A stretch of DNA of 43,931 nucleotides from a virus (lineage: Duplodnaviria > Caudoviricetes), in IMG/VR virus record IMGVR_UViG_3300011335_000766, positions 1 through 43,931 of that record. The stretch is one strand, 5' to 3'. The first letter of the stretch is position 1; each line of letters starts with the position of its first letter. This document shows, piece by piece, positions 20,620-43,931 of the stretch. Below the pieces are notes generated by a model. It saw only the letters and a program-made list of their open reading frames with translations, searched no databases and was not told where the DNA came from. Both the position numbers and the translations under genes were made by a program.

Positions 20620-20631
20620 TAGGAAACAGAT

Positions 20632-22684: not shown

Positions 22685-22990
22685 ATGAATACTGACAACT
22701 TAATCGCTCACGCACGAGCCCGGTTTGATCATGTGGCCGCACGCCGTGTGTTGAAAGAAAAATACGAAGCCCGAATGTTATTCGCCTACAACGGCGGTAT
22801 GTGGCGTGCTGGACCCGAACTCTTGGTATTGTTGGCTACTGTGCCTCCGTGTGATGCAGTAGTGCTAGACTTGTATGAAACTCCTATACAGGTCAGACCC
22901 GAAGAGCTGCGCGGCATGGCCATGATGCGCTGGCAAGAACAGATGAATGCTTGGCATGTGGAACATGAACAACTGAACAAACAACGATGA
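22685..22990 (+). CDS. Hypothetical protein (101 aa; start revised from 22586)
   Basis: The ATG at 22685 follows the terminator/promoter, and the gene overlaps the next one by ATGA. The longer start in the track would run through the terminator and the previous gene. Confidence 0.75.
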   Translation: MNTDNLIAHARARFDHVAARRVLKEKYEARMLFAYNGGMWRAGPELLVLLATVPPCDAVVLDLYETPIQVRPEELRGMAMMRWQEQMNAWHVEHEQLNKQR

Positions 22991-24547: not shown

Positions 24548-24884
24548 TCAAGAATTCTTAGAATTTTGGAACAACTTCAAGTGGCCAGAAATCACCCTAG
24601 TGTATCGTAGACTATACTACGATGATGCAGGAGAGCCACTGTTTTATAGTCAAGAAGATTTGCCCGGTAAGTACATCGATGTCACTCCTGAGCAGTTTGC
24701 TCTACAGGATCGATCAGTAAAAGTCATCAATGGAAAACTTGTGCGTCGTAGAACTGCAAGGATAGCTAAACTTGTTCCTGCTGAATCGGGTACCCTTTGC
24801 CATGCCAATGATGTGACCATTGTAGTTGATGATCAGCCCGGGCAATATTGGAAGAAAAAAGAAAATGTCGTTGAAACAAATTGA
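24540..24884 (+). CDS. Hypothetical protein
   Basis: 114-aa ORF overlapping both neighbours in the coupled operon. Confidence 0.7.
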   Translation: MNDQEFLEFWNNFKWPEITLVYRRLYYDDAGEPLFYSQEDLPGKYIDVTPEQFALQDRSVKVINGKLVRRRTARIAKLVPAESGTLCHANDVTIVVDDQPGQYWKKKENVVETN

Positions 24885-25779: not shown

Positions 25780-25783
25780 CATT

Positions 25784-27160: not shown

Positions 27161-28256
27161 TCGACGAGTCATCTGTGACACATCTTGTGAGATCTATCCT
27201 GAAATCAAACATCTAGTAGATGATACATTTTGGGAATTTGATAATCCCCAAGAGAATTCAATCACGATATTTGCTCGGCAGACAGTAAACCGCCATTCGG
27301 TCAAGATAAAGGAATTAGCTACAGCAGGCTTCTTCTTGCCAGTATTGGCCAATCCCAGCGAAGGATCCATAGTGCTAAAACTTCAATGCCAACGCCTAGG
27401 ATTGCTGGATCTAGTCACACAAAAGAAAATGTTACTAGTAGGGTGCGGAGACATGGAACCCGAACTCAATTGTTTAGTATATGATTGCTATCTCAATCGA
27501 GTGATCGGATATGAACAAAACATCGAACAATCCGGCCGAGTGGATGAGATATACAACAAAACAAATAAACCCTACAAATTCTTGTTCTTAAATGGTCGAA
27601 CACGCCCTCATAGAAAATACATGATAGAAAAGATGCGTGATGCTAGATTACTAGAACATGCACTATGGACCAATCTAGACACCACTCCTGTATATCATCA
27701 CACATACAATACTGAGTTATTGAGTCGAGAATCTATTATACACTTGCTGCCCGATCAATACGAAGTAGAACAATATCATACAAATATCCAAAATCAATTT
27801 GAGTATTCGTTTATCAAGCACGAACTATTCAACAACCAATGGGGTGATGTATACATCCGTGCCGATCCATATATTGATACCTATTTTAGTTTAGTAACTG
27901 AAACAGTATGTGACTATCCATATAGTCTACGCAGTGAAAAAATCTACAAACCTCTTGCTATGGGTCATCCTTTTGTGGCTGTGGCCAATCGCGGTTTCTA
28001 CAGAGATTTGCATCATGCAGGATTTCAAACATACCACACTTTAATAGATGAATCATTTGATCAGATCGACAACAATCAAGACCGACTGGATAGGATAGCC
28101 ACTGTGGTTGCGGATTTGTGTGCCGGTGATTTAGATGAATTCCTGGTCGCGGCCCGGGCAATAAGTAAGTATAATCAACAACATATGAAGGACTACGGTT
28201 CCAAAATCCGTCGGGAGTTTCCTGAACGGTTTTTACAATTCCTACAACATCAATGA
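27150..28256 (+). CDS. Putative glycosyltransferase-like protein (GT10/GT47-like TEK family) #1
   Basis: FLFLNGRTRPHR...YFSLVTET...SEKIYKPLAMGHPFV...GFQT...IDESFD. The EK motif recalls the GT10 donor-binding motif. It has two paralogs at 37300-39599. Confidence 0.5.
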   Translation: MLDNRRVICDTSCEIYPEIKHLVDDTFWEFDNPQENSITIFARQTVNRHSVKIKELATAGFFLPVLANPSEGSIVLKLQCQRLGLLDLVTQKKMLLVGCGDMEPELNCLVYDCYLNRVIGYEQNIEQSGRVDEIYNKTNKPYKFLFLNGRTRPHRKYMIEKMRDARLLEHALWTNLDTTPVYHHTYNTELLSRESIIHLLPDQYEVEQYHTNIQNQFEYSFIKHELFNNQWGDVYIRADPYIDTYFSLVTETVCDYPYSLRSEKIYKPLAMGHPFVAVANRGFYRDLHHAGFQTYHTLIDESFDQIDNNQDRLDRIATVVADLCAGDLDEFLVAARAISKYNQQHMKDYGSKIRREFPERFLQFLQHQ

Positions 28257-29590
28257 CCGATTTAGAATTTAAGCAACAGGTGCTGGACACCAAGAGTGCA
28301 AGTTTTTGTGCAGCAAAATGGTATAATGCAACCATCTGGTTGGGTAGTGGCATGACCACAAGTTGCCATCACCCGCCGGCCCATTTGGTGGACATTGATA
28401 AAGTTCGGGCCAACCCTAGGCTGCTGCACAATACTGATCAGAAGAAAGAAGATCGTCGCAAGATGATTGCCGGCGAGCGTCCTGCTGGTTGTGAGTATTG
28501 TTGGAAGATCGAAGACATGGGTAGCGATGCCGTTAGTGATCGTGTATATAAGAGTAAGATTTATCCTATAGAGCTGTTAAATGAAGCACATACCAATCCA
28601 CCCGATCAAGACTTCAACCTTCGTACCTTGGAGATTGCTTTTGACCGCACTTGCCAATTTGCTTGCAGTTATTGTAATCCTGCATTCAGCAGCACTTGGG
28701 TTCGAGACATTCGTAAAAATGGACCTTATCAAGGCCTTGTGTCTGATGGCAGGAATCACTTTACTCACGATCATAGCAGCAGTCAGCTTTATAGCTTCGG
28801 TGAAACCAATCCTTATGTGGATGCGTTCTTTGCGTGGTGGGAATCGGACCTACATCGAACCCTCCAAGAACTCCGGATAACCGGCGGCGAACCTTTGATG
28901 TCGGGCGAGACTTGGAAACTGATTGACTGGTTTAAAAATAACCCGGGCCGTAGCCAAACACGCTTGGCCATCAATTCAAACTTGGGCACAGCAGTAGATC
29001 TGGATCGATTGCTTGATAGCATTGCAGGATTAGAAGTTGACTTGTATACATCCAACGAAAGTGTAGGCCTGCAAGCCGAATACATCAGAGACGGCTTGGT
29101 GTGGGATGACTGGGCCAACAATGTGGAACGCTTGTTAGACTCAGGTAAGTTCCGTGGCATACACATCATGAACACAATCAATGCATTGTGTCTGTACTCA
29201 CTGGATCAGTTCTTGGAATGCATAATGAACTGGAAAATAGAATACGGCCGTGATGCTGTGAGTTTTACTTTGAACATCCTGCGATTCCCCAGCTTCCAAT
29301 CACCCTTGATATTGCCCGACGAACTACGCACGGTATTTCGACAACGGTTAGAAGTGTGGCTTGATGCTTGGTGGGATAGTGAATTCTTGCATGAGCACGA
29401 AGTCAATCATGTTCAACGCCTGATTGATTATCTTGACATAGTCAAGACTCCACACTCAGAAGCATTTGATCGGCCCAAGTTGCTGAATGACTTCAAGCAG
29501 TTCTATACACAATATGATCAGCGTCGAGGCAAATGCTTTGATCTGGCATTTCCTGCATTAAAACCCTGGTATGACTCAATACAAATATAA
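28253..29590 (+). CDS. Radical SAM protein with N-terminal auxiliary Fe-S region #2
   Basis: CQFACSYC and TGGEP; N-terminal CAAKW...SCHH...CEYC; C-terminal DQRRG. Confidence 0.88.
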   Translation: MTDLEFKQQVLDTKSASFCAAKWYNATIWLGSGMTTSCHHPPAHLVDIDKVRANPRLLHNTDQKKEDRRKMIAGERPAGCEYCWKIEDMGSDAVSDRVYKSKIYPIELLNEAHTNPPDQDFNLRTLEIAFDRTCQFACSYCNPAFSSTWVRDIRKNGPYQGLVSDGRNHFTHDHSSSQLYSFGETNPYVDAFFAWWESDLHRTLQELRITGGEPLMSGETWKLIDWFKNNPGRSQTRLAINSNLGTAVDLDRLLDSIAGLEVDLYTSNESVGLQAEYIRDGLVWDDWANNVERLLDSGKFRGIHIMNTINALCLYSLDQFLECIMNWKIEYGRDAVSFTLNILRFPSFQSPLILPDELRTVFRQRLEVWLDAWWDSEFLHEHEVNHVQRLIDYLDIVKTPHSEAFDRPKLLNDFKQFYTQYDQRRGKCFDLAFPALKPWYDSIQI

Positions 29591-30830
29591 CAGCAGTGAT
29601 TTAGTTCAGGACATAGATCTTTCAGACCGCGAGCAATTTTTGCTCACTGAATCTAAGACCTTTTGTATCTATCCATGGATACATCTTCATGCATATCCTA
29701 CTGGTGAGGCATATCCATGCTGTCATGCGGAAATGAAATACCCGATAGGAAATTGCCGATCTAATACCTTGTCAGAGATATGGCAAGATCAGCCTATGCA
29801 AAAATTACGGTCAGACATGCTGAGTGAAACACCCAATGTGGCTTGTGGTCGTTGTTACGAACAAGAACAATCAGGATTCTTCTCAGGCCGTAAAAGCGCA
29901 AACAAGCATCACGGACATCATATCAAAAAGTTAGATAAAAATCCATTCGAGATGACCTATTGGGACATACGATTTTCAAATCTGTGCAATCTCAAATGCC
30001 GTAGTTGTGGCTATATTTTCTCCAGTCAGTGGTATCAGGATCAGGCCAAACTAGCAGGTGATGATTGGGACAAGAACCACAAGGTGCTAAACATTGCCGG
30101 GCGCACTGAAACTGATATGTGGGAGCAGCTATTACCACACTTAGATTATGTAGAACAGATATACTTTGCCGGCGGCGAACCCTTGTTAATGGAAGAGCAT
30201 TATCGAATCCTAGACGAGTTGGTTCGGCGGTCTTTGTTCCATGTTAGATTGATATACAATACAAACTTCACACATACAGATTTAAAAGGTAAAAGTGTGT
30301 TTGAGTATTGGAAACTGTTTGATAGTGTAGCAGTAGGTGCTAGTTTAGATGGTGCAAAAGATCGTGCAGAATACATACGCAAAGGAACCAAATGGCAACA
30401 GGTGGAACAAAATCGAATCGACATGCTACGCATCTGCCCAGATGTTGATTTTTACATAAGCCCTACTCTTAGTATTCTAAATGCATGGCATCTGCCGGAC
30501 TTTCATCGAAACTGGGTCGAGCGTGGATTCATTCAGGCACAAGATTTAAATGTAAACATCTTACAAGATCCTCCGCATTATCGAATTGACATCGCTCCAA
30601 TAAAATACAAACAACGACTGCGGATAAAATATCAAGAACACATAGAATGGTTACGAGATAAGGATCCACTACAGCGTGCCACAGTAGGATTTGAGTCTGC
30701 GATTAAATTCATGATGGCCACAGATAACACACAACTCATCGACACCTTCTGGCGTAAGACTCATGAACTAGATAGCATAAGAAATGAAAAATTGTTAGAT
30801 GTGATTCCGGAACTTCAGAGTTTGTTATAG
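29571..30830 (+). CDS. Radical SAM protein with N-terminal auxiliary Fe-S region #3
   Basis: CNLKCRSC, AGGEP, YNTN and ASLDG; N-terminal CIYPW...G...PCC...IGN...CGRC. Confidence 0.88.
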   Translation: MTQYKYNSSDLVQDIDLSDREQFLLTESKTFCIYPWIHLHAYPTGEAYPCCHAEMKYPIGNCRSNTLSEIWQDQPMQKLRSDMLSETPNVACGRCYEQEQSGFFSGRKSANKHHGHHIKKLDKNPFEMTYWDIRFSNLCNLKCRSCGYIFSSQWYQDQAKLAGDDWDKNHKVLNIAGRTETDMWEQLLPHLDYVEQIYFAGGEPLLMEEHYRILDELVRRSLFHVRLIYNTNFTHTDLKGKSVFEYWKLFDSVAVGASLDGAKDRAEYIRKGTKWQQVEQNRIDMLRICPDVDFYISPTLSILNAWHLPDFHRNWVERGFIQAQDLNVNILQDPPHYRIDIAPIKYKQRLRIKYQEHIEWLRDKDPLQRATVGFESAIKFMMATDNTQLIDTFWRKTHELDSIRNEKLLDVIPELQSLL

Positions 30831-30831
30831 C

Positions 30832-32232
30832 ATGACAAAAAATCTGCATCTATACATAACAGAAGAAGATTACACGGAAATGGCCGGACCTAATTGGCCT
30901 GCGTATGTTGATTTCTTGCAAGGATTTCGTGGAGTGAAACCTGAAATACAACAAGAGCTAGAAGAGTACATCCAACAACATCGTAAACAAGGTATAAAAT
31001 TTCCTATCAAAACCGCCACAGCCTGTCAAAGCAAATGGACCTGGAGCACTATCTATCTCAATGCACTTAGCACAGCTAGTTGTCATCGTGTAAATCCAAT
31101 TCCATTTGATCTAGAAGATTTTGACAATTTTCACAACATACCTAAAAAACTCAATGATCGTCGACTCATGCTAGAAGGCAAATGGCCCACTGGTGGATGT
31201 GAATACTGTCAAGAAATTGAAAATTCGGGTGGGCGCAGCGATCGACAACATAATTTAGACATACGGGGCCTTACTCCTCCGGAACTAGAATTAGATCCTA
31301 CTGCTATTTCTGTTACTCCAAGATTGGTTGAGATATTTGCTCAGAACACCTGTAATCTAAGTTGCATTTATTGCAATGGGAATCTCAGCAGCAAAATTGA
31401 ACAAGAAAATATCAAGCATGGGGAATTCGACCAGGGCGATGTAAAAATACCAATCATCGCAGTTCCTACAACAGCAACCAAAGAATATTTTGATCGATTC
31501 CTTAGTTGGTTGGAAAAAAATATACAGCAGTTGGTTCGATTACATCTATTAGGAGGGGAAACATTTATACAGCACGAGTTGATGAATTCAGTGTTGGATA
31601 TACTAGAACGCAACCCTAGTCCAGATTTAGAATTTTGTATTTTTAGTAATTGCAATGTTCCCGACAAGTGGTGGGATCATTACATTGGTCGAATCCATGC
31701 TTTACAGATTGCAGGAAAGATAAAAGTGTTTGATCTAACAGCCAGTATCGATTGCTGGGGCCCTGAACAGGAATATATAAGATCCGGGCTCAATCTGGAC
31801 AAATTTGAAAAGAGATTTGCATGGGCAAGTCAACAAGGTGATTGGTTACGACTCAATGCCAATCAGACTGTTACTGCTATGACTATAAAAACCATGCCCG
31901 GCTTGATTGAAAAGATAAAACACTACGGTAAAAACAAACACATTGGGCATTATTTCGAATTTTACATTGGTCCAGATATGTTTCAACATCCAAAGATATT
32001 TGCTTGGGATTTTTGGAAAGATGATTTTGAAAAAATATTAACTGCCATGCCCACAGACACAGAAGCACAAAGAGAAGCTATTCCCCGTATGCAAGGGTTA
32101 CAAAGTTTGTTAAAACAAAGTTCGCATAACGATCTAGTTTCTATAAAAAAGTTACATGTGTATCTTGACGAATTAGATAGACGCAGATCTACTAATTGGA
32201 GGATACTGTTTCCTTATTTAGATATACTATGA
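30832..32232 (+). CDS. Radical SAM protein with N-terminal auxiliary Fe-S region #4 and extra ~55-aa leader domain
   Basis: CNLSCIYC, LGGET and ASID; N-terminal CQSKW...SCHR...CEYC; C-terminal DRRRS. Confidence 0.88.
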   Translation: MTKNLHLYITEEDYTEMAGPNWPAYVDFLQGFRGVKPEIQQELEEYIQQHRKQGIKFPIKTATACQSKWTWSTIYLNALSTASCHRVNPIPFDLEDFDNFHNIPKKLNDRRLMLEGKWPTGGCEYCQEIENSGGRSDRQHNLDIRGLTPPELELDPTAISVTPRLVEIFAQNTCNLSCIYCNGNLSSKIEQENIKHGEFDQGDVKIPIIAVPTTATKEYFDRFLSWLEKNIQQLVRLHLLGGETFIQHELMNSVLDILERNPSPDLEFCIFSNCNVPDKWWDHYIGRIHALQIAGKIKVFDLTASIDCWGPEQEYIRSGLNLDKFEKRFAWASQQGDWLRLNANQTVTAMTIKTMPGLIEKIKHYGKNKHIGHYFEFYIGPDMFQHPKIFAWDFWKDDFEKILTAMPTDTEAQREAIPRMQGLQSLLKQSSHNDLVSIKKLHVYLDELDRRRSTNWRILFPYLDIL

Positions 32233-33440
32233 AAATACCTCACGACCAATTCTGCGTATTGCCCTGGATCAGTTTAGAAGCCAGTCCTATTGGCACAGTA
32301 CGACCTTGTTGTTTAGCTGATGATGAAATTGTGGATGATGTTGGCAACAAGTTTAAGTTAGCCACTGCTAATTTTTCACACATACAAAACAGCAACCATA
32401 TGACACAGTTACGAACTGAATTTCTTGCAGGACACCGACCAGAAACATGTAGGAAATGTTGGAATGAAGAAGATGCAGGCCGTACATCAAAACGCATGCA
32501 CACATTGGACCGTCTCAAGCACAGTCTCCAAGATGATGAGTGGAGCACAGATGCTAAACCATTGATGTTCTTAGATCTCAAACTAGGTAACATATGTAAT
32601 CTCAAATGTAGAATCTGCGGTTCGTGGTCTAGTTCACAGTTTGCTGGAGAAGAGATTTCATTCACACCGAGAGAAGAACAAAAATCCAGCCATGCTTATC
32701 GGATGTTGCGAGCAGGCGCTTGGCCCAAAGAAAACGCTCATTTCTGGCAGCAGATTGATAGTGTACTTGCTGATATACGATACATCGAATTTACTGGTGG
32801 CGAACCGTTCATGATCGACCAACATTTTGATATGTTGCAAGGTATAGTGGATCGTGGTATAGCTCACCAAGTTGAGATACACTACAACACCAATGGCACA
32901 TTGTTTCCTGATCGTGGTCCAGATATATGGAAGCATTTTAAGACTGTGGAGATAGCATTCAGTGTGGATGACATTGGCCCTCGCTTTGAATATCAACGAT
33001 CAAATGCCTCCTGGGGTACAGTGAAAGAGAACATCAATCGATTTAGGATCATGCGCGAAAGTATGCCTAACTTGCAGTTACAATGCTGCACCACAGTGAA
33101 TGTTTTCAATGTGAGATATCTAGATGAGGTAGCATTGTGGATAGCACTACAGGATTTTGATTTTGTGTATTGGAACATGATGCACGACGCATGGTATTTT
33201 TCAATATCAAGACTTCCAGCAAGTGCTAAAGAACAAATCGCTGATTATCTCAGTGATTGTAATGTTCCTGACCAATACCGAGCAGAATTTGTCCGCATCA
33301 TTGACTTTATGATTCGTGGTGAATCATCCGATGGTACTGAAACCCTGTTACAGATACAAAAGCTAGATCAGCGTAGACAACAAGATCTAAAAAAAGTAGC
33401 ACTTGAATTGGCGCAGATATTAAACTATGCAAAAACCTGA
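32229..33440 (+). CDS. Radical SAM protein with N-terminal auxiliary Fe-S region #5; start revised from 32196
   Basis: CNLKCRIC, TGGEP and YNTNG; N-terminal CVLPW...PCC...CRKC. The ATG at 32229 forms an ATGA overlap with the upstream stop. Confidence 0.88.
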   Translation: MKIPHDQFCVLPWISLEASPIGTVRPCCLADDEIVDDVGNKFKLATANFSHIQNSNHMTQLRTEFLAGHRPETCRKCWNEEDAGRTSKRMHTLDRLKHSLQDDEWSTDAKPLMFLDLKLGNICNLKCRICGSWSSSQFAGEEISFTPREEQKSSHAYRMLRAGAWPKENAHFWQQIDSVLADIRYIEFTGGEPFMIDQHFDMLQGIVDRGIAHQVEIHYNTNGTLFPDRGPDIWKHFKTVEIAFSVDDIGPRFEYQRSNASWGTVKENINRFRIMRESMPNLQLQCCTTVNVFNVRYLDEVALWIALQDFDFVYWNMMHDAWYFSISRLPASAKEQIADYLSDCNVPDQYRAEFVRIIDFMIRGESSDGTETLLQIQKLDQRRQQDLKKVALELAQILNYAKT

Positions 33441-34725
33441 GTCTTTGTGTTTGGCTCCCTGGGTACACACTTATCTTTCTCCACAGACCGAGCGGCGTAT
33501 GTGCTGTGCATCAAGAGAACCTGCACAGAATTTCCAACAATACATTGATACTGAATCAGGAACCGGAACCTATATTCCTATCACACTAGAACAGCATTGG
33601 AACGGCGAGCACATGAGATCAGTGCGGCGTCGTATGATGGCCGGTGAAAGATTGCCCGAGTGTGAAGTGTGCAACGATCAACTGCTAAACACCGATGTAT
33701 ATCGCACATACTTTGGCCAACTATTTGAACATAAATACTCCGCAATTTTAGAACAAACTGATGCAACTGGTCGCACCACGATGCAACCGGTGAGTTGGGA
33801 TTACAGATTCAGCAATCTATGCAATTTCAAATGCAGAACATGTGGAGACATGTTGAGCAGTAGTTGGGAGTCAGAACAAAAGACACACCACATGGTCAAC
33901 TGGAGTAATCCTAAGAATAACTGGATGCGGCCCGAAGTAAGACAACAGATAAGTCAATTCCAAGATACGCAGATTGAACAAGAGTTTAGTGATGCTGTAG
34001 AACAGCACAGAGTAGAAGAAGTATATTGGGTGGGTGGCGAGCCGTTGATGTATGAGCAGCATTGGCGCTACATGCAACGCATAGTAGAACTAGGGGATGG
34101 ACCAAGGGTATATGCTAGATATAATACAAACTTATCCAGGGTGGATTATCACGGGATCAATCTTTATCGCGACATTCTTCCTGGGCTACGAGATTGGCAG
34201 ATATGTGCAAGTCTCGACGGGACAGGAGCAATTGGAGAATACATTAGAACAGGCCTTGACTATGATCGATGGCTTGATAACTTCGGTAAAGCAGTGGCGA
34301 TACGAAGTCACCCTCGTCAAGTCAGAATTGACTTTACGCTCACTCTGCCCGGAATGTTCGAAGTTGGCGCGATTACAGAACTCGCTAGACAATTCGGCGT
34401 AGATATCCTGGCCAAAGTAATCTTTAGTTTCTCACCTGATATTGTTATGAGTCCATTGGCATTGCCTAGGCATTTACTAGAACCTTGGTTAGACGAACTG
34501 ATAGCAGATACACACGGTGCCATGCAGGCAGTGTTGATACAACTAAAAAATCGCCCTACATTCGACGAACAATGGCCCAACGAATACCGATCTGCTCTTG
34601 CTCAAGGCCGTGATCGTGTGTTACAATTAGAACAGATAAGAACACAACCGATAACTATGACCGATATCCTGTCAGCCAGGCCTGATGTATTAAAATGGTG
34701 GATGGAAATTGCTGAATTCAATTGA
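33427..34725 (+). CDS. Radical SAM protein with N-terminal auxiliary Fe-S region #6
   Basis: CNFKCRTC, VGGEP, YNTN and ASLDG; N-terminal CLAPW...MCC...CEVC. Confidence 0.88.
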   Translation: MQKPESLCLAPWVHTYLSPQTERRMCCASREPAQNFQQYIDTESGTGTYIPITLEQHWNGEHMRSVRRRMMAGERLPECEVCNDQLLNTDVYRTYFGQLFEHKYSAILEQTDATGRTTMQPVSWDYRFSNLCNFKCRTCGDMLSSSWESEQKTHHMVNWSNPKNNWMRPEVRQQISQFQDTQIEQEFSDAVEQHRVEEVYWVGGEPLMYEQHWRYMQRIVELGDGPRVYARYNTNLSRVDYHGINLYRDILPGLRDWQICASLDGTGAIGEYIRTGLDYDRWLDNFGKAVAIRSHPRQVRIDFTLTLPGMFEVGAITELARQFGVDILAKVIFSFSPDIVMSPLALPRHLLEPWLDELIADTHGAMQAVLIQLKNRPTFDEQWPNEYRSALAQGRDRVLQLEQIRTQPITMTDILSARPDVLKWWMEIAEFN

Positions 34726-35746
34726 AATAGATCTTCGCAACAAAAATAATCATGTGTTGACCGTATACATTGATGTGGAGGATAACAGTCTCTCACGAAA
34801 GTGGCTTTCAGCATTGAGCCATTTGATTGCTCACAATTATCATCTAGAAAAAAACTACTGTTGGTTAGGATGGGCAGAAGGTGATCGATCTCTAGAATAT
34901 ATCTGTGGTGAAATCAACCGTAGTATCTCAGAGATCAACTCAGCCGATCTTGGATATCAGATTGATGATGAGTTTACTCCGGCAAATACTGTGGCAGATG
35001 ATCTTGGTGTTGACCATGCTCATATGAATCAACTGCACAGGTATTTTGAAGACCTACAAGGCGTGTCAGGAGCAATGAGTCCTTACTACACAGCCGCTGA
35101 TTCAGTCACACGCTGGCACATACGACAGTTGAACCTGTTATGCCATGAGCATGAAAGTTTGGTATTGAGCATGCGTAAGTTAAAACAAGCACCCGAATGG
35201 TGCAGGCCATCACAACTGATGTGCTGGCTACAGTCACCAAGATTTGCATTAGAAACTGAGGATTATGAACTGTTTGGTATAGAAACTATCAACAGATCGC
35301 TAGGTGGAGTTTATGTGGGCGTAAATAAAGCAGTGGGCAAACATCATTGGGAAGTATTCAACGACGAAGGCCGAGACAGTCGGGTGGGCGAACTTGTGAC
35401 CAGTAGTTTGAAATCACAGTCCGAAGCCGCTGGAGATTTTGACATCGAATGGGGAAGAAATCCAGCAGCATATCCTTGGCAGATCAAGGAACTGGATGAG
35501 TTCAGAACCTGGCTGATAGAAAATGGATTTGATCCAGATGATAAATCATTGACCATTGGCCATCCCAAAGTTGCTCAAGTAGATCTCATGCGTAGCTTTG
35601 GGACGACAGATTACAATCTCATATGGAATCAATTGGCCGACCATCTAGATGTTTATAAAATAAGAATCAACAACACTGAGGCTACATACGAGTATCGCTG
35701 GAGCGACCCGGACTACCAGCAACAACAAATAAGGAATATGCTATGA
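34709..35746 (+). CDS. Hypothetical protein within the modification cluster
   Basis: 345-aa ORF (TTG start) overlapping both neighbours. It has His-containing helical motifs (NQLHRYFE, LNLLCHEHE) but no family was recognised. Confidence 0.75.
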   Translation: MLNSIEIDLRNKNNHVLTVYIDVEDNSLSRKWLSALSHLIAHNYHLEKNYCWLGWAEGDRSLEYICGEINRSISEINSADLGYQIDDEFTPANTVADDLGVDHAHMNQLHRYFEDLQGVSGAMSPYYTAADSVTRWHIRQLNLLCHEHESLVLSMRKLKQAPEWCRPSQLMCWLQSPRFALETEDYELFGIETINRSLGGVYVGVNKAVGKHHWEVFNDEGRDSRVGELVTSSLKSQSEAAGDFDIEWGRNPAAYPWQIKELDEFRTWLIENGFDPDDKSLTIGHPKVAQVDLMRSFGTTDYNLIWNQLADHLDVYKIRINNTEATYEYRWSDPDYQQQQIRNML

Positions 35747-35844
35747 ATTGGATCAAAAGAATGTGGGCAAAGATCACATTGGAAATTCGCTATCGTAAAA
35801 AACTTCGAGAACTTCGTAAACGCGATCCTTTTATCTACAAATGA
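35743..35844 (+). CDS. 33-aa basic small protein (absent from ORF track)
   Basis: Hand translation: MNWIKRMWAKITLEIRYRKKLRELRKRDPFIYK*. ATGA overlaps at both ends bridge the two neighbours exactly, and AAGGA lies upstream. Confidence 0.8.
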   Translation: MNWIKRMWAKITLEIRYRKKLRELRKRDPFIYK

Positions 35845-37316
35845 ACTACATAGGTATATCTGCTGGATTCCATGATGCTGCTGTAAGTGTGGTTAATCAG
35901 GCTGGTGATATATTGTTTGCTGCTCACAGCGAACGCTATAGTAAGAGAAAGCACGACAAGGATCTCTGCGAAGATCTGCTATTAGATGCTTTGAGACATA
36001 CAGATTCCGCTCGACTAGAATATCATTACTACGAGCGCCCTTGGATCAAAGCCATGCGACAACTACGCAGTGGTGAAGGGTTCTCTTGGCCGTCGTGGGA
36101 TCGACTGCTCGGGTCAACATACAACATCATGGGTAGACCCAAGATACACACTCATGGCCATCACTTGTGCCACGCAGCAGGGGGATTCCAAACCAGCTCA
36201 TTTGATGATGCCACAATTGTGGTGATAGATGCCATAGGAGAGTTTGATACTGTAACTATTTGGGATGCCTGGTATGAAAACGGCCGAGCACGATACAAGA
36301 AAGTATGGAGCCTGCGATATCCTGATTCAATCGGCTTGTTCTATTCGGCTATGACTGCCCGTGTGGGGCTAAAACCCATGGATGAAGAATACATACTCAT
36401 GGGCATGGCAGCATATGGAGAACCTGTGTATCTTGACGAGATACGGAAGCAACTGCTAGATCTATCAAACGGATTACACTTTAAAAAGAATCTACACATT
36501 GGTGTAGACGATGATTTCTTGCCCATGGCTGATCCTGCAAACATTGCCAGCACAGCACAATTTCTAGTAGAGAGCATGATACGAGATGTTCTACAAAAGG
36601 CCAGAGAGCACGGGCGTAGCCGTAATCTAGTGTATGGCGGTGGTGTGGCATTGAATTGCCTGGCCAATCGATTCTTAGGACAATACTATGAAAAAATTTG
36701 GATCATGCCTAATCCGGGGGATGCTGGCAATAGTCTCGGTGCTAGTTGTTTGGCTCATGGTGGCCGTGTTAATTGGCGAGACTGTTTTCTGGGGCATAAT
36801 ATACCCGGTGCTTACCCGGTAAACGAGATCTTGGATCATCTAGTCACAAATAAGATAGTAGGAGTGGCATCAGGGCGTGCTGAGTTCGGACCAAGAGCCC
36901 TGGGCAATCGTAGTCTATTAGCTGATCCACGAGGACATTCAATTAAGAGCCGGGTGAATGAGATCAAACGACGACAAAAGTTCCGCCCATTTGCACCTGT
37001 GATACTTGAGGAATACGCAGCAGAATACTTTTATATGCCGCCTAACTTCGATACCAGCCCATACATGCAGGTCGTGGCCGACTGCCGCAATCCAGAACTA
37101 TTTCCTGCTATCGTACATGTGGATGGCACCAGCAGAGTACAGACTGTGCCCCGAGATGGCTCGGGTATTCGACAACTGTTAGAAAAATGGTATGTTATGA
37201 CCGGATGCCCTATGCTGCTAAACACCAGTCTCAACATTCGTGGGGAGCCTATGGTCAACGATCGAAAGGATGCAGATCGATTCCAACGGTGCTATCAAGT
37301 CAAGGTGTGTAGTTGA
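35841..37316 (+). CDS. O-carbamoyltransferase, NodU/CmcH/TobZ family
   Basis: GISAGFHDAA, ERYS, HHLCHAA, IDAIGE, GGVALNC, GDAG, EFGPRALGNRS, RPFAP, HVDGTSRVQTV and LNTSLN..GEP. Confidence 0.93.
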   Translation: MNYIGISAGFHDAAVSVVNQAGDILFAAHSERYSKRKHDKDLCEDLLLDALRHTDSARLEYHYYERPWIKAMRQLRSGEGFSWPSWDRLLGSTYNIMGRPKIHTHGHHLCHAAGGFQTSSFDDATIVVIDAIGEFDTVTIWDAWYENGRARYKKVWSLRYPDSIGLFYSAMTARVGLKPMDEEYILMGMAAYGEPVYLDEIRKQLLDLSNGLHFKKNLHIGVDDDFLPMADPANIASTAQFLVESMIRDVLQKAREHGRSRNLVYGGGVALNCLANRFLGQYYEKIWIMPNPGDAGNSLGASCLAHGGRVNWRDCFLGHNIPGAYPVNEILDHLVTNKIVGVASGRAEFGPRALGNRSLLADPRGHSIKSRVNEIKRRQKFRPFAPVILEEYAAEYFYMPPNFDTSPYMQVVADCRNPELFPAIVHVDGTSRVQTVPRDGSGIRQLLEKWYVMTGCPMLLNTSLNIRGEPMVNDRKDADRFQRCYQVKVCS

Positions 37317-38487
37317 TACGATCCACAACCACTTGCAGTCTGTGAGCCATGCCTGCGCGAAATACCTGAGCATTATGCTGTATCTCGGGTGCAAGATCCT
37401 GATATAGACGATGTAAATTATCCTGCCCGGATTGTATCAATGACTTGGTAAGATCTAGCACAGCTTCAAATCGATCTTGATTATTACTGTTTGAATCATA
37501 ACTTTCATCTATACAACGACCAAAAGTCTGATATCCAAGGTCGCGCAGGTGTCGGAGATGATCTGCAGAACTTACCATTACAAAAAATTGATTGTTGAAT
37601 ATGGGTTTGAATGTTTTTTCTGTGATAAATTGCCCACCAGAGTCGTCCACATCGATCATGGTCTCTAACACAATGTTGAAATAACTGTCAGTATACAAGT
37701 CGGCCATGTTCTGATTGTAGGTATTATGAGCGCGGGTATCTAGATCATCTACACGGAATGGGCCAGCGGCAATAAACTGATCTACCCTGGATTGGCATTT
37801 AGCGAGATAACTGTTTCTCAATGCACATCCATAATAATCGTCCTCCCCGCCTAACAAGTGTTGAGTGTAACTGAAGTAACCTTGTTTGTGTAAGCCATGA
37901 CTCCATAGATCGCTCATAAACACCTTGCGCCAAAGTTTATCTATCCTGCACAGTCCGGTATAGGCGCGTGATCTTGGATTGAGATGATATTGAGCATTTG
38001 AATTTCTATCCACTGTACGCCAATACATGAATTCTAGTTCAGGCCAATACACTGAGTTCGGATATTGATCAGCAGAAGAATTGCCTGAAATCAACCATGT
38101 CATTTCTTTGTCTATGCCATGCTGTTCGCAAAGCGTGTTTAATCGATCTCGGATGCGCCCAGGATGATCGCCTTCATGATAGGTAAACACCAGTTTCATT
38201 TCTTTTGATTTTATTTTAGCCATGGCATCGGTGCTGATCTGAGAGATATAGTCTTGACCGAAATCAAACCATCCTGATACCATTGGGTACCATGCGCCAC
38301 AAGGAGCATCTTTGGTTGATACAACTTGATTGGGGATTTTGCAATCTCCGAGATAGTATATAATGCGAGGAAAATCCAATCTATATCCATCCATGTCATC
38401 AATTTGATCATGCAAGTGTACAGGTATACCGTTGGGCATGGGCCTCCTAGTAATCGGATGCCGATAGTCAACTGCTATGTAAATCAT
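37300..38487 (-). CDS. Putative glycosyltransferase-like protein (TEK family) #2
   Basis: YFNIVLET...FITEKTFKPIFNNQFFV...LRDLGYQTF...IDESYD; paralog of 27150-28256. Confidence 0.5.
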   Translation of the reverse strand: MIYIAVDYRHPITRRPMPNGIPVHLHDQIDDMDGYRLDFPRIIYYLGDCKIPNQVVSTKDAPCGAWYPMVSGWFDFGQDYISQISTDAMAKIKSKEMKLVFTYHEGDHPGRIRDRLNTLCEQHGIDKEMTWLISGNSSADQYPNSVYWPELEFMYWRTVDRNSNAQYHLNPRSRAYTGLCRIDKLWRKVFMSDLWSHGLHKQGYFSYTQHLLGGEDDYYGCALRNSYLAKCQSRVDQFIAAGPFRVDDLDTRAHNTYNQNMADLYTDSYFNIVLETMIDVDDSGGQFITEKTFKPIFNNQFFVMVSSADHLRHLRDLGYQTFGRCIDESYDSNSNNQDRFEAVLDLTKSLIQSGQDNLHRLYQDLAPEIQHNAQVFRAGMAHRLQVVVDRINYTP

Positions 38488-39599
38488 TTAGATAAATGTG
38501 TCTTGATTGATTCTAACATGTCGGTAAGTTCGGCCCATAGCACCGATTCAAACCCGCCTCGGTAGAACCAATTCCAGTTGTGTTCAATCACAGGCCAGCA
38601 GGCTTGGAATAGTTCTTGTTTCTCTTGTTTAGAGAGATCATTTAGTTTTTTTAACACAGCAGCAACCTTTTCGGCTCTGCTCAAGTCGTTAGTGTCAAGA
38701 TCATAACTCTCATCCCAAAAATCTCCAAATGTTTGGAATCCATAACTACGCAAGTATGCAAGACTGCCTGCTGTGGCCGACAGTACAAATGGCATACCCA
38801 ATGCGATGGGTTTAAATGATTTTTCGGTAAGTTGTAACCTACGCCCGGTGTACACAGTTTCTGTAACATGATAAACTAGACTTTCGGCACATGGATCAAA
38901 TTGATCCAACCAACAACTGCTCATCCGAGGAGTATTTTCTCCGGGAAATAGTCTAGGTAGATCTATTTTGTTAATCACATCAACGATGTCAAGATGTTGA
39001 TCTTTATAATTTTGGGCAATTTCACCAATGGAAGTATTCTCTACTGGGCACACAGCACTGGCACTGATCCAATTATCCATAAGACCTAGTCGAGCAAAGT
39101 GATACAACATTAACACTCGATGTTGTCGCAACCCACCAATGATCCGATTGGCACTAAAGAAGGTTTTTTGGATCTTCCTCTCAGTCCAAGGTGTGATTTG
39201 AAAAGTTCGATCATATCCGCGATACCAATCTAATGCAGCCCATCCATGGAAAAAATAATAAAAAGGTTGCAAGTTTCTCTGTTTACATATATAATCTATG
39301 TTGGTACTGTTGGTTTCGCTAACTACTATGACTCCTGTTTTTCTAACATGAGGCCTGAATCTTTGTAGGTTGCTATGATCTAACCGATCCAAGGTTGCTC
39401 GATGAAGATTTGGGATCAAAGGTTCTTGGTCAAAGAAATATATAAAACTTTTTTCTTTATCGTCAACTGATTTATAATTTTGAAGACTGTCTGGGTTGCT
39501 AGATCCAAAAGGGTCATGATAAACCATTCCGGTATGCGGCAAATTTTTTCTTATCCAGGGCAAGAATGTATTTTCGTAGAGCTCATCTATCCTGATCAT
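38484..39599 (-). CDS. Putative glycosyltransferase-like protein (TEK family) #3
   Basis: FFSANR...RQHR...HVTET...LTEKSFKPIALGMPFV...LRSYGFQTF...WDESYD; ATGA overlap with 37300-38487. Confidence 0.5.
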   Translation of the reverse strand: MIRIDELYENTFLPWIRKNLPHTGMVYHDPFGSSNPDSLQNYKSVDDKEKSFIYFFDQEPLIPNLHRATLDRLDHSNLQRFRPHVRKTGVIVVSETNSTNIDYICKQRNLQPFYYFFHGWAALDWYRGYDRTFQITPWTERKIQKTFFSANRIIGGLRQHRVLMLYHFARLGLMDNWISASAVCPVENTSIGEIAQNYKDQHLDIVDVINKIDLPRLFPGENTPRMSSCWLDQFDPCAESLVYHVTETVYTGRRLQLTEKSFKPIALGMPFVLSATAGSLAYLRSYGFQTFGDFWDESYDLDTNDLSRAEKVAAVLKKLNDLSKQEKQELFQACWPVIEHNWNWFYRGGFESVLWAELTDMLESIKTHLSK

Positions 39600-41211
39600 G
39601 TTTGATATATTTTATATTGGAACCAAACCAAATCTGTTTGTACACGAGCAACAGGTCGAATCTATTGAGCAAGCACATCAACGGTCACGCACAAGATTCT
39701 TTTGGATGGTCTCATATTTAGTGGATTATACAGGGTTCGATTTCCTTTATGAACCGCCACCTTGGCAATCACATCAACGCCACACATGGCCTAGCCAATG
39801 GCAAGAGGATTCCGGCACATATCTTGTTCCTACTGCGGGCTACACAGACACAAACTATCACTCCGCTCCACAACTACCAAGAACTTTGGCCACAGCCAAG
39901 TACGAGATCGATCACATGGACGGTGCAGCAGGACAGATACCTGGTGTTGCACGACGAGTAAGATACTTTGACAACTACAGAGACACACTAATCCGATTGG
40001 CTAAGAGCATTGGCACAGAACATGAGTTTGTGTGGGTATGCTCTAGCATCTGCGATTATACCAACTTTGACTTCTCGTGGCATCCTAGTCATTGGCAATA
40101 CAATCTACTTCATGTGTTTGCCAGCGATGAACAAAAGTTTGGAGACACATTCTTCATGCATGTGCCTAGTTTTGCAGCAAAGGCAGAAACTGTGGAGTTG
40201 TTGGACTGGTATGATTGTAACTTTGTTGATATCTCAGTTCCTCGTAGACCTATGCCTGTGATACAACACGACTTAGATAGCCATGTTGATGCAGTAAAAA
40301 CAATGACTTGGAAAGGGCCCCTGGCGTTGTTTGTGACCAATACTAACCCTTCCATATCTCAACCCGCTGTGAATCTTTGGAGAGCAGAAACTAAAACTTT
40401 GATACCATTAGATCCGGGTGCCAATGCAGTGATAGTTCCGCAGTCTGTGGTGCCATATATAAAAACACAATTGTATGATTATGCCTATATAGACAAAACA
40501 AAAAGATCTACACAACCTGCACAGTTACAAGATGTGATTTTTATATCCTATGATGAACCCGAAGCAGAGATTAACTGGAAAAAACTACAAGACAAATGTA
40601 CAAGGGCTAAACGGGTTCATGGTGTACAAGGTATGGAAAACGCATTAGCAGCAGCAGCGGAACTGAGTTCCACTCCGTGGTATTTTTGTGTGTTTGGAAA
40701 AACTGAATTGCATCCTGATTTTGACTTTACTTTCCAGCCTGACTACTTTCAACAGCCAAAGCACTACATTTTTTACAGTGAGAATCGCGTGAACAAGTTA
40801 GTGTATGGAGAGATGGCTGTTATCATGTATAATTGCAATCTCATACTTGATAATCAAAATCAAGAGTTTGGTCTTGATTACACATTGAGCTTCCCCCATG
40901 AAGTCATACCCATCATCAGCACATATGGGAACTTCAACACCAGCCCATATCATACTTGGAGAACAGCATTTAGAGAAGTCAGCAAACTGTACGACATGCA
41001 GGAAAAATCGCCATCCGTTGAAACTGAATATCGTATCAACATATGGGAAACCGTGGCCCAAGGTGATTATGCAGAGTGGGCTCTAACCGGGGCCAAGGAT
41101 GGAAGAGAATTCTATCAAAAATACAAAAATGACTTTGCTTATAGGAAAAATAGCTTCAACTGGCAATGGTTAAGAAACTATTTTTCAACTCTCCACGGAG
41201 AGTTCAATTGA
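39598..41211 (+). CDS. Multidomain protein of tandem degenerate GT-A-like units
   Basis: Repeated units FFWMVS..VDYTGFDFLYEP, FVWVCS..CDYTNFDFSWHP and WYFCVF....LHPDFDFTFQP. The C-terminal unit (DVIFISYDEP...RVHGVQG...TWRTAFREVSK) is homologous to 24865-25779. Confidence 0.6.
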   Translation: MFDIFYIGTKPNLFVHEQQVESIEQAHQRSRTRFFWMVSYLVDYTGFDFLYEPPPWQSHQRHTWPSQWQEDSGTYLVPTAGYTDTNYHSAPQLPRTLATAKYEIDHMDGAAGQIPGVARRVRYFDNYRDTLIRLAKSIGTEHEFVWVCSSICDYTNFDFSWHPSHWQYNLLHVFASDEQKFGDTFFMHVPSFAAKAETVELLDWYDCNFVDISVPRRPMPVIQHDLDSHVDAVKTMTWKGPLALFVTNTNPSISQPAVNLWRAETKTLIPLDPGANAVIVPQSVVPYIKTQLYDYAYIDKTKRSTQPAQLQDVIFISYDEPEAEINWKKLQDKCTRAKRVHGVQGMENALAAAAELSSTPWYFCVFGKTELHPDFDFTFQPDYFQQPKHYIFYSENRVNKLVYGEMAVIMYNCNLILDNQNQEFGLDYTLSFPHEVIPIISTYGNFNTSPYHTWRTAFREVSKLYDMQEKSPSVETEYRINIWETVAQGDYAEWALTGAKDGREFYQKYKNDFAYRKNSFNWQWLRNYFSTLHGEFN

Positions 41212-42298
41212 AAAAATCAAGCACAGCCTGTGCGACTGTATCTACATCCCCGAGATTGAGTTGTGCATGAACTGGAAGACTGATACATCTAGCAGATAGT
41301 CGTTCGCTGTTGGGCAGGCTTACTTTGGGCATGTTTCGATACACAGGCTGTTGATGCATAGCCAAGGGAAATTGGATACCTGCTTGAATTCCTTGATCAT
41401 ACAGAGATTCATAAAGATCATCTCTACGGTCAGATTGGATCACAAATTGATTGTAAACATGACTGCTGACTTGGTTTGATTGTGGTAACTGTATTTTATC
41501 ACAATGTTTGAGTAATTCCATATACCGTTGAGCATGTTCGACTCTTTTCTGATTCCATGTATCTAAAAAATCAAATTTGGCCGACAGTATGGCTGCTTGC
41601 ATAGAATCAAGTCGTTCATTCCATCCCACGATTTCATGTAGATATTTTTCTCTACGGCCGTGATCTCGCAGCATTTTGATGTCAGCGATAAGTTTTTTCT
41701 TGCCAGTAACCGCGCCAGCATCGCCCATGGCTCCTAAGTTTTTTCCTGGATAAAAACTAAAACAAGTTAGATCGGCTTGATTTCCGATCGGTTGCCCTTT
41801 GTATCGGCACCCTGCACTTTGTGCAGCATCTTGGATTAGCGGAATACCGGGTGCTAGGGCTCGCAATCTTTGTAGAGCAATTGTTTGCCCGTAAAGATCA
41901 ACAAAAATGATTGCCCGGGTTTTGTCCGTGATAGCCAGTTTGATCTGATCTAGATCTATAGTGTAATATTGATCAATGTCGACAAAGCGAGGTATAGCAC
42001 CAATCTGGCTAACACATTCAGCTGTGCTAATGAAACTCATGCCGGGAACCACAACTTCATCGCCAGGTTTCACACCAACTGCTAACAAAGACAATGTCAG
42101 CGCACTGGTGCCACTGCTTACTCCTGCACAATCTTCGGCACGAGTGTATTGTTTCCATTTGTCTTCAAAATTCTTAACTTCTATACCACCAATGAACGAA
42201 CTGTTATCAATGCATCGTTTGATCGCAGCATCTATAGATGTTTTAGCCTCTGTGTATTCCTGAAACAAATTTGCGTATGGTATAGTTATTGTCTGCAT
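41204..42298 (-). CDS. DegT/DnrJ/EryC1/StrS family PLP-dependent sugar aminotransferase; start revised from 42319
   Basis: SSGTSAL, GDEVVVP..SFISTA, VDLYGQ, QDAAQSAG, CFSFYPGKNLGAMGDAG (PLP lysine), G.NERLD..QAA and ISLP. Confidence 0.93.
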   Translation of the reverse strand: MQTITIPYANLFQEYTEAKTSIDAAIKRCIDNSSFIGGIEVKNFEDKWKQYTRAEDCAGVSSGTSALTLSLLAVGVKPGDEVVVPGMSFISTAECVSQIGAIPRFVDIDQYYTIDLDQIKLAITDKTRAIIFVDLYGQTIALQRLRALAPGIPLIQDAAQSAGCRYKGQPIGNQADLTCFSFYPGKNLGAMGDAGAVTGKKKLIADIKMLRDHGRREKYLHEIVGWNERLDSMQAAILSAKFDFLDTWNQKRVEHAQRYMELLKHCDKIQLPQSNQVSSHVYNQFVIQSDRRDDLYESLYDQGIQAGIQFPLAMHQQPVYRNMPKVSLPNSERLSARCISLPVHAQLNLGDVDTVAQAVLDFFN

Positions 42299-43671
42299 GT
42301 GACTGGTCCTTGATTCCACGGTATACCAAACTTTTCGTCATCTTGAGCCTGATTGATCAATCTACTTACTACATGATCAAACGCATCTAAATATCCAACA
42401 TCAGGTGGCATTGGTCTTATTGTTTTCTCTGATTGTACAAAATCTCGAACTACCTGTTCTACGCTACTATCGTTGATATTTCCGATGATGTATCTTTCAG
42501 CACCAGGACGATCTAAAAAGCCACTTTCGTGATACACATAAACATCGCCTTTGACATCAACTGCTACAGCAACTTGCGGAAAGCTATGTGGTACCATCTC
42601 CTTCCAAGAGATCATTTTCAATGCGCCGGAGTTCCTTCCATGCACCAGTGATTCTAATGCATATCCAAAATCCCAATGTGTAGTAGGCCACTTGTTTTGT
42701 TTGAAATCTTTGATGCGGTCAAAAATATCAACAAGCTGTGCTCGCTCTTCATCACTGACTATGCGAACATTCTGACTGAAATCTTCTCTCAAAGTTACAA
42801 AGTCAACAGGACGAGTAGTATGACTGTTGATATGATCAATGATATCAATCAGCTTCAATACATCTTTAGAGGACCCAGGAAGGATGATCCAGTTTACTCC
42901 CACACGCACATCAGTGGTCGAATTGATGTAGTCAATGATGTTTTGTATGATGCCATCAAAACTTTCTGAATGGCGTGTTACTTTAAACGCACTATCTGCA
43001 TCCACTCCGTATAAACTGAATCTAACTGCGTAAAGATCTTTCATACCAGGGTTTTTCTCTACATACTTAGGGGTCATCATGTAACCATTGGTGTAGAGCT
43101 GCATTTTGTAACCACGCTGTTTGCCGTAAGTGATGATATCACCTAGATACCGATTAGTCAACGGTTCAAGCCCACCACTGATCCTAAATCTATCATCCCA
43201 GAACTGATCAGTCTTGGGATCTTGATCGATGATCTGTTTGAATACATCAAACCCATGTTGTTCAAACTTCCGATCGTATTTGGCAACAGGATTACGCCCA
43301 CAAAAATTACAATAGAACATACAGCTCATACCGGTGTATAACCCAATGCGGTTTGGATACATGTAATGATGATCTATAGCAGCATGTAACGATCCGTTGT
43401 CTAACAATGGGCGGATGGTATTGGTCCAGTACTTGGTACCTTCGCCACGGAGTAAGATATGATTCTGTGCTCGGTTATCTTGTCGTAAGGCATGTGATAA
43501 CTCGCGCAATTGATCCGCAGAAATGTTCAGTGTGGATGCTATTTTTCTTTGAGTCACAAAAGGATCATTGGCTAACATTTCGCACACTTGCATGGACACT
43601 GAGTCCAAGTGAGAAATATCAGAATCCTGATCAACAGTAACGGAACTATGGGTGTAACCTAATCTTGACAT
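42286..43671 (-). CDS. desII: DesII-like radical SAM enzyme (NDP-4-amino-4,6-dideoxyhexose ammonia-lyase family); start revised from 43683
   Basis: GLYTGMSCMFYCNFC, SGGLEPLTN, LYTN, RFSLYG, ILPG, DFVTLREDFS, DFGYAL.SL, PQVAVAVD..GDVY.Y.E.GF...GA.RYI.G and VVRDFV all match, in order, what I recall of Streptomyces DesII. Confidence 0.82.
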   Translation of the reverse strand: MSRLGYTHSSVTVDQDSDISHLDSVSMQVCEMLANDPFVTQRKIASTLNISADQLRELSHALRQDNRAQNHILLRGEGTKYWTNTIRPLLDNGSLHAAIDHHYMYPNRIGLYTGMSCMFYCNFCGRNPVAKYDRKFEQHGFDVFKQIIDQDPKTDQFWDDRFRISGGLEPLTNRYLGDIITYGKQRGYKMQLYTNGYMMTPKYVEKNPGMKDLYAVRFSLYGVDADSAFKVTRHSESFDGIIQNIIDYINSTTDVRVGVNWIILPGSSKDVLKLIDIIDHINSHTTRPVDFVTLREDFSQNVRIVSDEERAQLVDIFDRIKDFKQNKWPTTHWDFGYALESLVHGRNSGALKMISWKEMVPHSFPQVAVAVDVKGDVYVYHESGFLDRPGAERYIIGNINDSSVEQVVRDFVQSEKTIRPMPPDVGYLDAFDHVVSRLINQAQDDEKFGIPWNQGPVTCRQ

Positions 43672-43673
43672 AT

Positions 43674-43931
43674 TTAAACACAATCTAACAACGAATCAAT
43701 GATGTAATCAACTTCAAGATAAGTGAGTTCAGGGTAAAGAGGTAGTGTGAGGCAGCGGCGTGCTAGACTGCTTGCTGGGCTCAGTATGCTGGGTCCTTGG
43801 AGATGTTGATAAGCAGGCAGTTCATGCAGTGGATCACGATAGTGTATCTTTGTCTCGATACCTCGGTCGGCCAGTTTTTGCTGTAGTAGATCACGGTCAT
43901 CCACATCAATCACAAACTTGTGGAAGCTGTG
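43674..43931 (-). CDS. C-terminal part of a second DegT-family aminotransferase (5' truncated by window)
   Basis: The frame is open to the window edge: HSFHKFVIDVDDRDLLQQKLADRGIETKIHY..PLH..PAY...LTLPLYPELT, a typical DegT C-terminus. Confidence 0.85.
   Translation of the reverse strand, partial: HSFHKFVIDVDDRDLLQQKLADRGIETKIHYRDPLHELPAYQHLQGPSILSPASSLARRCLTLPLYPELTYLEVDYIIDSLLDCV

Follow-up and report, generated by a model that had tools for sequence, protein, structure and literature searches.

A DesII-family radical enzyme between two DegT-family aminotransferases in an uncultured jumbo phage

The radical S-adenosylmethionine (SAM) enzyme DesII of Streptomyces venezuelae (PDB: 8HZV, 8HZY; TIGR04426) takes part in the synthesis of thymidine diphosphate (TDP)-desosamine together with the aminotransferases DesI (PDB: 2PO3; TIGR04427) and DesV (PDB: 2OGA), and is a model for how a radical enzyme chooses between elimination and oxidation. 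The group at C4 of the sugar decides the chemistry: an amine leads to deamination, the equatorial hydroxyl of TDP-quinovose to dehydrogenation, and the axial hydroxyl of TDP-fucose to partial dehydration (PMC11434129). Water loss has a high computed barrier of 23 kcal/mol (PMC11434129). Only the Streptomyces enzyme has been characterised. Here, we have analysed a viral DNA of 43,931 nucleotides (IMG/VR record IMGVR_UViG_3300011335_000766; the window, which is the whole record). Its last 2.7 kb hold three contiguous minus-strand open reading frames (ORFs) that encode a DegT-family aminotransferase (DegT-A), a DesII-family radical SAM enzyme and a second DegT-family aminotransferase (DegT-B). 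DegT-A is cut by the contig end, and the DNA upstream of the trio was read from relatives only.

We propose, at somewhat less than an even chance, that C4 amination, radical deamination and C3 amination yield a nucleoside diphosphate (NDP)-3-amino-3,4-dideoxy sugar for the adjacent protein, which has a predicted glycosyltransferase-A (GT-A)-like fold. DegT-A would aminate C4 of a keto-sugar, a role that goes against its sequence class. The DesII homologue would abstract the C3 hydrogen and expel the C4 amine to leave a 3-keto-4-deoxy sugar, which DegT-B would aminate at C3. The acceptor of this 3-amino-3,4-dideoxy sugar would be a phage glycan, probably one of the virion, with the GT-A-fold protein as the transferase. 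We infer every reaction in this scheme, and likewise which nucleotide is used, what C6 carries and which acceptor is served. Over all the readings weighed below, a 3-amino-3,4-dideoxy product is probable.

The cassette, its DesII homologue and the wider family

An initial annotation of this DNA had described the trio as a desosamine-type pathway, and the gene arrangement itself is real. The likely start codon of the radical SAM gene lies 2 nt past the DegT-A stop, and the GTG start of DegT-B overlaps the radical SAM stop. Since the same gene order recurs in relatives with DesII identity down to 45%, the trio is not a product of chance. Compared with the relative L001, the ratio of nonsynonymous to synonymous substitution rates (dN/dS) is 0.07 for the DesII homologue and 0.10 for DegT-B; the cassette is real, conserved and under selection. 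Proteins of the window match baseplate and virion families, the nearest cultured baseplates being those of 290-490 kb jumbo phages at 33-36% identity. By these matches the window belongs to an uncultured jumbo phage to which the cultured ones are distant relatives; the same evidence rules out host contamination or a cellular contig.

Residues 36-453 of the radical SAM protein align to S. venezuelae DesII (PDB: 8HZV) with an E-value of 4.8e-72 and 33% identity, and the next match has E 0.21. The predicted model (predicted local distance difference test, pLDDT, 91) fits 8HZV with a template modelling (TM) score of 0.87; the root-mean-square deviation is 1.8 Å over 433 columns. It has the three-domain DesII fold with one CX3CX2C cluster motif (C121/C125/C128), a GGE motif (GGLE at G170-E173) and a ribose motif (R221/S223/Y225), and retains the active-site acids E386 (equivalent to E408 of DesII) and D433 (D456). 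The cluster cysteines and both acids are found in 22 of 22 phage-clade alignment rows. The TIGR04426 profile matches with E 8e-105 and 351 bits, where the Streptomyces DesII of L126 scores 856 bits. As 351 bits lies below the equivalog cut-off of 450, we describe the protein as DesII-like by structure and do not file it as an equivalog. Sequence match, profile, fold and kept residues thus bear out the annotation's DesII assignment, and the middle gene is, by sequence and model, a true DesII relative. Another radical SAM family was considered and is ruled out by the DesII match, TIGR04426 and the fit to 8HZV.

Clade-wide changes adjoin the active site in the phage enzymes: R407 is replaced by His (H385), and the barrel strands carry Arg167 and Gln195. 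Among the active-site residues there is none that sets the clades apart from the deaminase, and comparison across clades fails to split deaminase, dehydratase and dehydrogenase. Because the outcome of DesII depends on the C4 group of its substrate, the conserved residues do not fix the reaction.

At E 1e-30, only 68 matches were found in 1.84 billion cluster representatives. The annotation had DesII known mainly from actinomycete macrolide clusters, but its relatives are not mainly actinomycete. They are common in SAR11 and other environmental bacteria, among them Omnitrophota and cyanobacteria, and are present in a thaumarchaeote and in marine phages, most of them next to a Gfo/Idh/MocA-family oxidoreductase (Gfo) or in fusion with it; among the 34 closest representatives that were scanned, 18 are Gfo::DesII fusions. 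A GTDB scan, whose pattern missed actinomycetes, found DesII relatives in 24 genomes, 15 of them Pelagibacteraceae. In an unrooted FastTree phylogeny, Streptomyces DesII nests among the Gfo fusions, apart from the phage clade. The antibiotic enzyme is thus a single branch within a family that serves mostly in clusters for surface sugars. No DesII was found among 50,697 records of cultured phages or among predicted viral structures (best TM 0.48), and a literature search, with most subscription papers outside its reach, agreed with the annotation in finding no described viral DesII.

In SAR11 and marine phages an uncharacterised flavoprotein accompanies DesII and Gfo (L037:8823-9878; L021-L029, L037-L053) and is sometimes fused to Gfo; a PDB search with the SAR11 protein gave no useful match, and it may be the electron donor of the radical enzyme. 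A cyanobacterial genome bin (L054) carries a fragmented Gfo::DesII fusion adjoining sugar transferases.

DegT-B scores 251 bits with DesV, 228 with QdtB and 222 with WbpE, against 126-142 with ArnB and 114 with DesI, and reaches 153 bits on the DesI model (cut-off 650). The C3 and C4 labels of the reference enzymes (3NYU, 5U21, 3FRK, 2OGA and 4ZAH, 2PO3, 3DR4, 2FNU, 1MDO, 4ZTC) come from the accessible part of a preprint (10.1101/2021.09.04.459008); 7B0D, 7N63 and 8E75 were not used as labelled references. By sequence DegT-B is a DesV-like, C3-type aminotransferase, as had been annotated. In one relative the DegT-B gene beside DesII (L016:11143-12216) is broken by one in-frame TAA, through decay or sequencing error.

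Table 1. Features of the window (aa, amino acids)
Feature	Position	Strand	Basis
DegT-A, 3' end (85 codons); phage-specific DegT/DnrJ aminotransferase family	43674..43931	-	PF01041, E 2e-14; cut by contig end
DesII-family radical SAM enzyme	42286..43683	-	likely start ATG 43671, 461 aa
DegT-B; DesV/QdtB/WbpE-like (C3-type) sugar aminotransferase	41204..42319	-	PF01041, E 1e-97
Convergent gene; C-terminal domain with predicted GT-A glycosyltransferase-like fold	39598..41211	+	structure model
Post-fibre tailoring cluster: six twitch-domain radical SAM genes, a carbamoyltransferase, several putative glycosyltransferases	22987..39599		NF033640, PF02543/PF16861

A slot with interchangeable fillings

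The cassette occupies a slot behind a shared gene for a short-chain dehydrogenase/reductase (SDR) of the extended type, and this slot takes three interchangeable fillings, one of which is DesII, DegT-B and the GT-like gene. DegT-A is the common filling: its 63 viral loci have the SDR upstream at 60, the GT-like gene downstream at all 63, DesII at 2 and Gfo at none. Gfo is also absent from five of five whole records in which DegT-A stands alone, two of them 100% complete, and the only linked partner of DegT-A there is the SDR. The extended SDR family acts at C4, which fits a C4 role of DegT-A, and the slot SDR belongs to a single family whichever filling follows. In close relatives, with DesII or lacking it, the DegT-A end is the same to the base, and the sequences diverge directly after it; DNA identity between the window and L001 is 82-90% across 40632-43631 and 65-83% outside. 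These patterns indicate that DesII, DegT-B and the C-terminal domain of the GT-like protein move as one block.

Of 154 viral DegT-B relatives the best 80 were examined, and 51 of these sit in the slot: 35 have Gfo, 15 DesII, one neither and none both. Collapsed into 90% clusters (n = 32, window included), the counts are 23, 8 and 1, and the label changes at least twice on the tree. DesII is absent from five whole Gfo-type records and Gfo from five DesII-type records, and in-place swaps are seen in L011/L012 and L249/L250. Gfo proteins of this family are described as sugar 3-dehydrogenases in the accessible part of the preprint (10.1101/2021.09.04.459008), and the best NCBIfam match of the phage Gfo is the UDP-GlcNAc 3-dehydrogenase model, below its cut-off. 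Most simply, the shared job of DesII and Gfo would be to supply a 3-keto sugar for DegT-B.

The GT-A-like domain has a confident model (pLDDT 92) whose best Foldseek matches are SunS and WrtF (E 1e-4, TM about 0.4); Pfam gave no match and Atlas weak glycosyltransferase leads only. The 3' part of the gene travels with the DesII-DegT-B block. In a tree of the domain, all 41 DegT-A-only rows lie to the same side of a 99% branch; the DesII and Gfo rows interleave, the window among them. From model and context, the GT-A-fold protein is likely the user of the sugar. The gene and its relatives vary from about 410 to 1780 aa, with internal repeats before the constant C-terminal domain, and a paralogue of the domain lies at 24826-25779 of the window.

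The order of the reactions

We surveyed 58 phage-clade DesII loci, 16 viral and 42 from the best 80 of 182 metagenome matches; records overlap. L050 (no DesII ORF called) and the fragmented L054 were left out of all counts in this study. DegT-A is present at 29, another second aminotransferase at 7 and a single aminotransferase at 14; 8 are too short and none has Gfo. A second aminotransferase therefore stands at 36 of 50 scorable loci (as 90% clusters, n = 23: 9 DegT-A, 3 other second, 7 single, 4 unscorable). Within the slot it is found at 9 of 15 DesII loci versus 0 of 35 Gfo loci (within 5 kb). Since the second aminotransferase occurs at DesII loci and never at Gfo loci, the order first annotated (amine in, amine out, amine in) is favoured, and the context suggests that DegT-A feeds DesII. 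When the DesII tree is rooted at its midpoint, DegT-A loci are found to either side of the root, and the single state requires at least four changes. In one pair, DegT-A beside DesII has a dN/dS of 0.079, compared with 0.088 for DesII and 0.085 for DegT-B; the adjacent GT there is of the DegT-B type, yet DegT-A is under purifying selection. The second aminotransferase of L009/L227 has a short loop as in DesI and ArnB. Phages L013, L254 and L257 have two DesII copies and an ArnB-like (C4-type) aminotransferase, L013 also a sulfotransferase.

Several observations weigh against this order, and the class of DegT-A is one of them. The window fragment is 94-96% identical to DegT-A of L220 and L216, 72% to that of a DesII-free phage, and 26-33% to DesI, WecE and ArnB; in a quick DegT tree, DegT-A is a family apart and shares about 27% identity with DegT-B. 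Built from 29 members, window fragment included, a DegT-A profile scores C3 enzymes at 159-199 bits and C4 enzymes at 88-101, about a twofold C3 bias, and a long catalytic loop typical of C3 enzymes is found in 28 of 28 DegT-A proteins. WecE, a C4 enzyme, also has a long loop. The accessible part of the preprint (10.1101/2021.09.04.459008) cautions that a high C3-profile score can also be reached by C4 enzymes, and Pcryo_0638 is a C4 enzyme according to the accessible part of its report (PMC8040287). By an inferred motif mapping, 27 of 28 DegT-A proteins have Asp for Tyr three residues before the catalytic Lys and lack the Gly that follows. By score and loop length DegT-A is C3-like, if atypical for C3 too. 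Of the two DegT proteins, then, DegT-B classifies as C3-type, and the C4 role of DegT-A runs counter to its C3-like class. The upstream DesI implied by the annotation is not DesI: L001 DegT-A scores 77 bits on TIGR04427 (cut-off 650), which with the C3-biased profile rules out orthology. A ColD/E1-type dehydratase is also ruled out, as the catalytic Lys is kept.

Gene context adds to the objections. The 14 single-aminotransferase DesII loci fall in at least four separate lineages, and three such records tested, 6-21% complete, hold no other DegT gene. The aminotransferase that stands with DesII in L011/L019 nests among partners of Gfo, and in L011 DesII takes the place of Gfo. Thirteen cellular DesII-like loci have flanks of 8.8 kb or more on either side; 12 of them have Gfo and 8 lack any DegT. 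The SDR has the catalytic Ser/Tyr/Lys without the Asp-Glu pair of RmlB, and its motif is epimerase-like; it may therefore not release a 4-keto sugar. Linkage alone could explain both gene retention and the GT tree.

In another reading, which we consider rather unlikely, the DesII homologue would be a radical 3-dehydrogenase in place of the nicotinamide adenine dinucleotide (NAD)-dependent Gfo/Idh/MocA enzyme. The C3 hydroxyl of a neutral NDP-sugar would be oxidised and DegT-B would aminate C3 to give a 3-amino-3-deoxy sugar with its C4 hydroxyl kept, and DegT-A would act on a parallel route. The exclusive use of DesII or Gfo in the slot, the in-place swaps, the closest profile match of Gfo and the interleaved GT domains all point this way, as does the action of DesII on TDP-quinovose. 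Left unexplained are the second aminotransferase, common at DesII loci and missing from Gfo loci, and the Gfo::DesII fusions, where a dehydrogenase joined to a reductase would be futile or give epimerisation only. It is also conceivable, if unlikely, that the enzyme is a 4-dehydratase: the SDR would epimerise an NDP-sugar to the galacto form, DesII would expel the axial C4 hydroxyl and DegT-B would aminate C3, reaching the same 3-amino-3,4-dideoxy product with no C4 amine needed. A single mechanism would then serve the one-aminotransferase phage loci and the DegT-free, Gfo-linked cellular loci. The epimerase-like SDR motif, the partial dehydration of TDP-fucose and the place of Streptomyces DesII within the Gfo-fusion clade of the midpoint-rooted tree, by which deamination may be derived, are consistent with it; the retention of DegT-A, the barrier to water loss and the lack of any residue setting the clades apart from the deaminase speak against it.

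A strict copy of the desosamine route, in which DegT-A is DesI, host or phage RmlA/RmlB supply dTDP-4-keto-6-deoxyglucose and the product is dTDP-3-amino-3,4,6-trideoxyglucose or desosamine, is very improbable. It draws on the gene order, the likeness to DesII and DesV, and a host that could supply the precursor. The annotation had pointed beyond position 43931 for the remaining genes. L220, the nearest relative with upstream DNA, has ThyX, a few unannotated ORFs, the SDR, DegT-A and DesII in that order. RmlA (PF00483) was found in 0 of 5 relative records, and neither an RmlB-type SDR nor DesI in the near-complete G001 (99%) and G002 (95%), the window's own genome being incomplete. The three SDRs of G001 are, by inspection, the cassette SDR, a GalE-like and a Gmd-like (GDP-mannose dehydratase-like) protein. 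The methyltransferase beside DesI/DesII in L128, used as a stand-in query for DesVI, had no match in the window, L001-L054 or L216-L295, a search of loci and not of whole genomes. With these genes missing, and the DesII score below the equivalog cut-off, desosamine itself is unsupported. Of the NDP-3-amino-3,4,6-trideoxyhexose first annotated, the sequence of amination, deamination and amination stands as the best fit to context, and dTDP, the 6-deoxy state and the label 'desosamine-type' are unsupported.

Full-length DegT genes in G001 and G002 are DegT-A and DegT-B only, accompanied by a mini-DegT of 200-240 aa in a deazaguanine cluster. Such mini-DegT genes (L131:8440-9144, L133:7156-7767, L134:5788-6378; 200-230 aa) have a short DesI/ArnB-like catalytic loop and lie among FolE, QueD, QueE, GalE-like and glycosyltransferase genes of the deazaguanine cluster; amino-sugar modification of DNA, or a hidden source of the C4 amine, is possible.

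Glycan context and relation to known systems

The tailoring cluster follows the virion and fibre-like genes, the latter at 19222-22622, and adjoins the cassette. Its six twitch-domain radical SAM genes form one run (25784-34725), all above the NF033640 cut-off. Twitch enzymes include sugar dehydrogenases, and one of them may thus supply the keto sugar of DegT-A where Gfo is missing. A NodU/CmcH-type carbamoyltransferase (35841-37316) is kept beside the cassette in most relatives, which suggests a carbamoylated glycan. Three paralogous unknown proteins share a C-terminal block (27150-28256, 37300-38487 and 38484-39599); for the last, Atlas points weakly (score 0.79) towards GT10 fucosyltransferase-like proteins. 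A 4684-aa virion structural protein (4344-18398) has weak FG-GAP and carbohydrate-binding matches. The cultured phage RsoM2USA, in which no DesII was found, has a reduced, partly syntenic tailoring cluster behind its virion genes; according to the accessible part of the report, ORFs ahead of that cluster were identified in its virions (PMC8504454). The sugar would thus probably go to a phage glycan on the virion.

One could speculate, with considerable doubt, that a large family of jumbo phages varies its virion glycan by swapping whole amino-sugar modules in one slot, and that the radical enzyme has two uses. With an aminotransferase whose C4 specificity evolved inside a C3 lineage, it would shift an amine from C4 to C3; where that gene was lost, it would replace a sugar 3-dehydrogenase without need of NAD. 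If true, no DesII enzyme before it would have had a primary (non-antibiotic) role, and the phages would offer a natural series in which to see what turns DesII towards lyase or dehydrogenase action. In the phage loci the active-site acids stay the same and the gene context takes three forms, with two aminotransferases, with one or with a reductase; such natural variants make the question of elimination versus oxidation testable. Whether sequence reveals C3 or C4 specificity can be tested directly on DegT-A. The loci further point to phage-made rare sugars and modular glycan variation in an abundant group of uncultured jumbo phages, a topic with little experimental work.

Like the desosamine steps of S. 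venezuelae, the phage cassette has the DesII fold and active-site acids, an aminotransferase upstream and a C3-type aminotransferase downstream. It differs in that the enzyme is only 33% identical, below the family cut-off and in a separate phage clade, that the upstream DegT is not DesI, that RmlA, RmlB and DesVI were not found in the relatives searched, and that the context is a viral glycan and not a polyketide cluster. Streptomyces plasmid DesI-DesII pairs (L126-L128), presumably of chalcose-type use in L126 and L127, likewise have DesII directly downstream of an aminotransferase, but there the partner is a true DesI (610 bits on TIGR04427 in L128) and no C3 aminotransferase follows. WbpB/WbpE and GnnA/GnnB we take to be pairs of a Gfo/Idh/MocA 3-dehydrogenase and a C3 aminotransferase; 35 relatives use such a pair in the same slot, with aminotransferases akin to DegT-B, whereas in the phage cassette the radical SAM enzyme fills the place of the oxidoreductase. 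In SAR11, Omnitrophota, cyanobacteria and marine phages, the uncharacterised Gfo::DesII fusions and the sets of DesII, Gfo and flavoprotein share the enzyme family, its residues and the setting in cell-surface sugar clusters. Their partner is a presumed 3-ketoreductase, which would give a 4-deoxy sugar, whereas that of the phage cassette is an aminotransferase.

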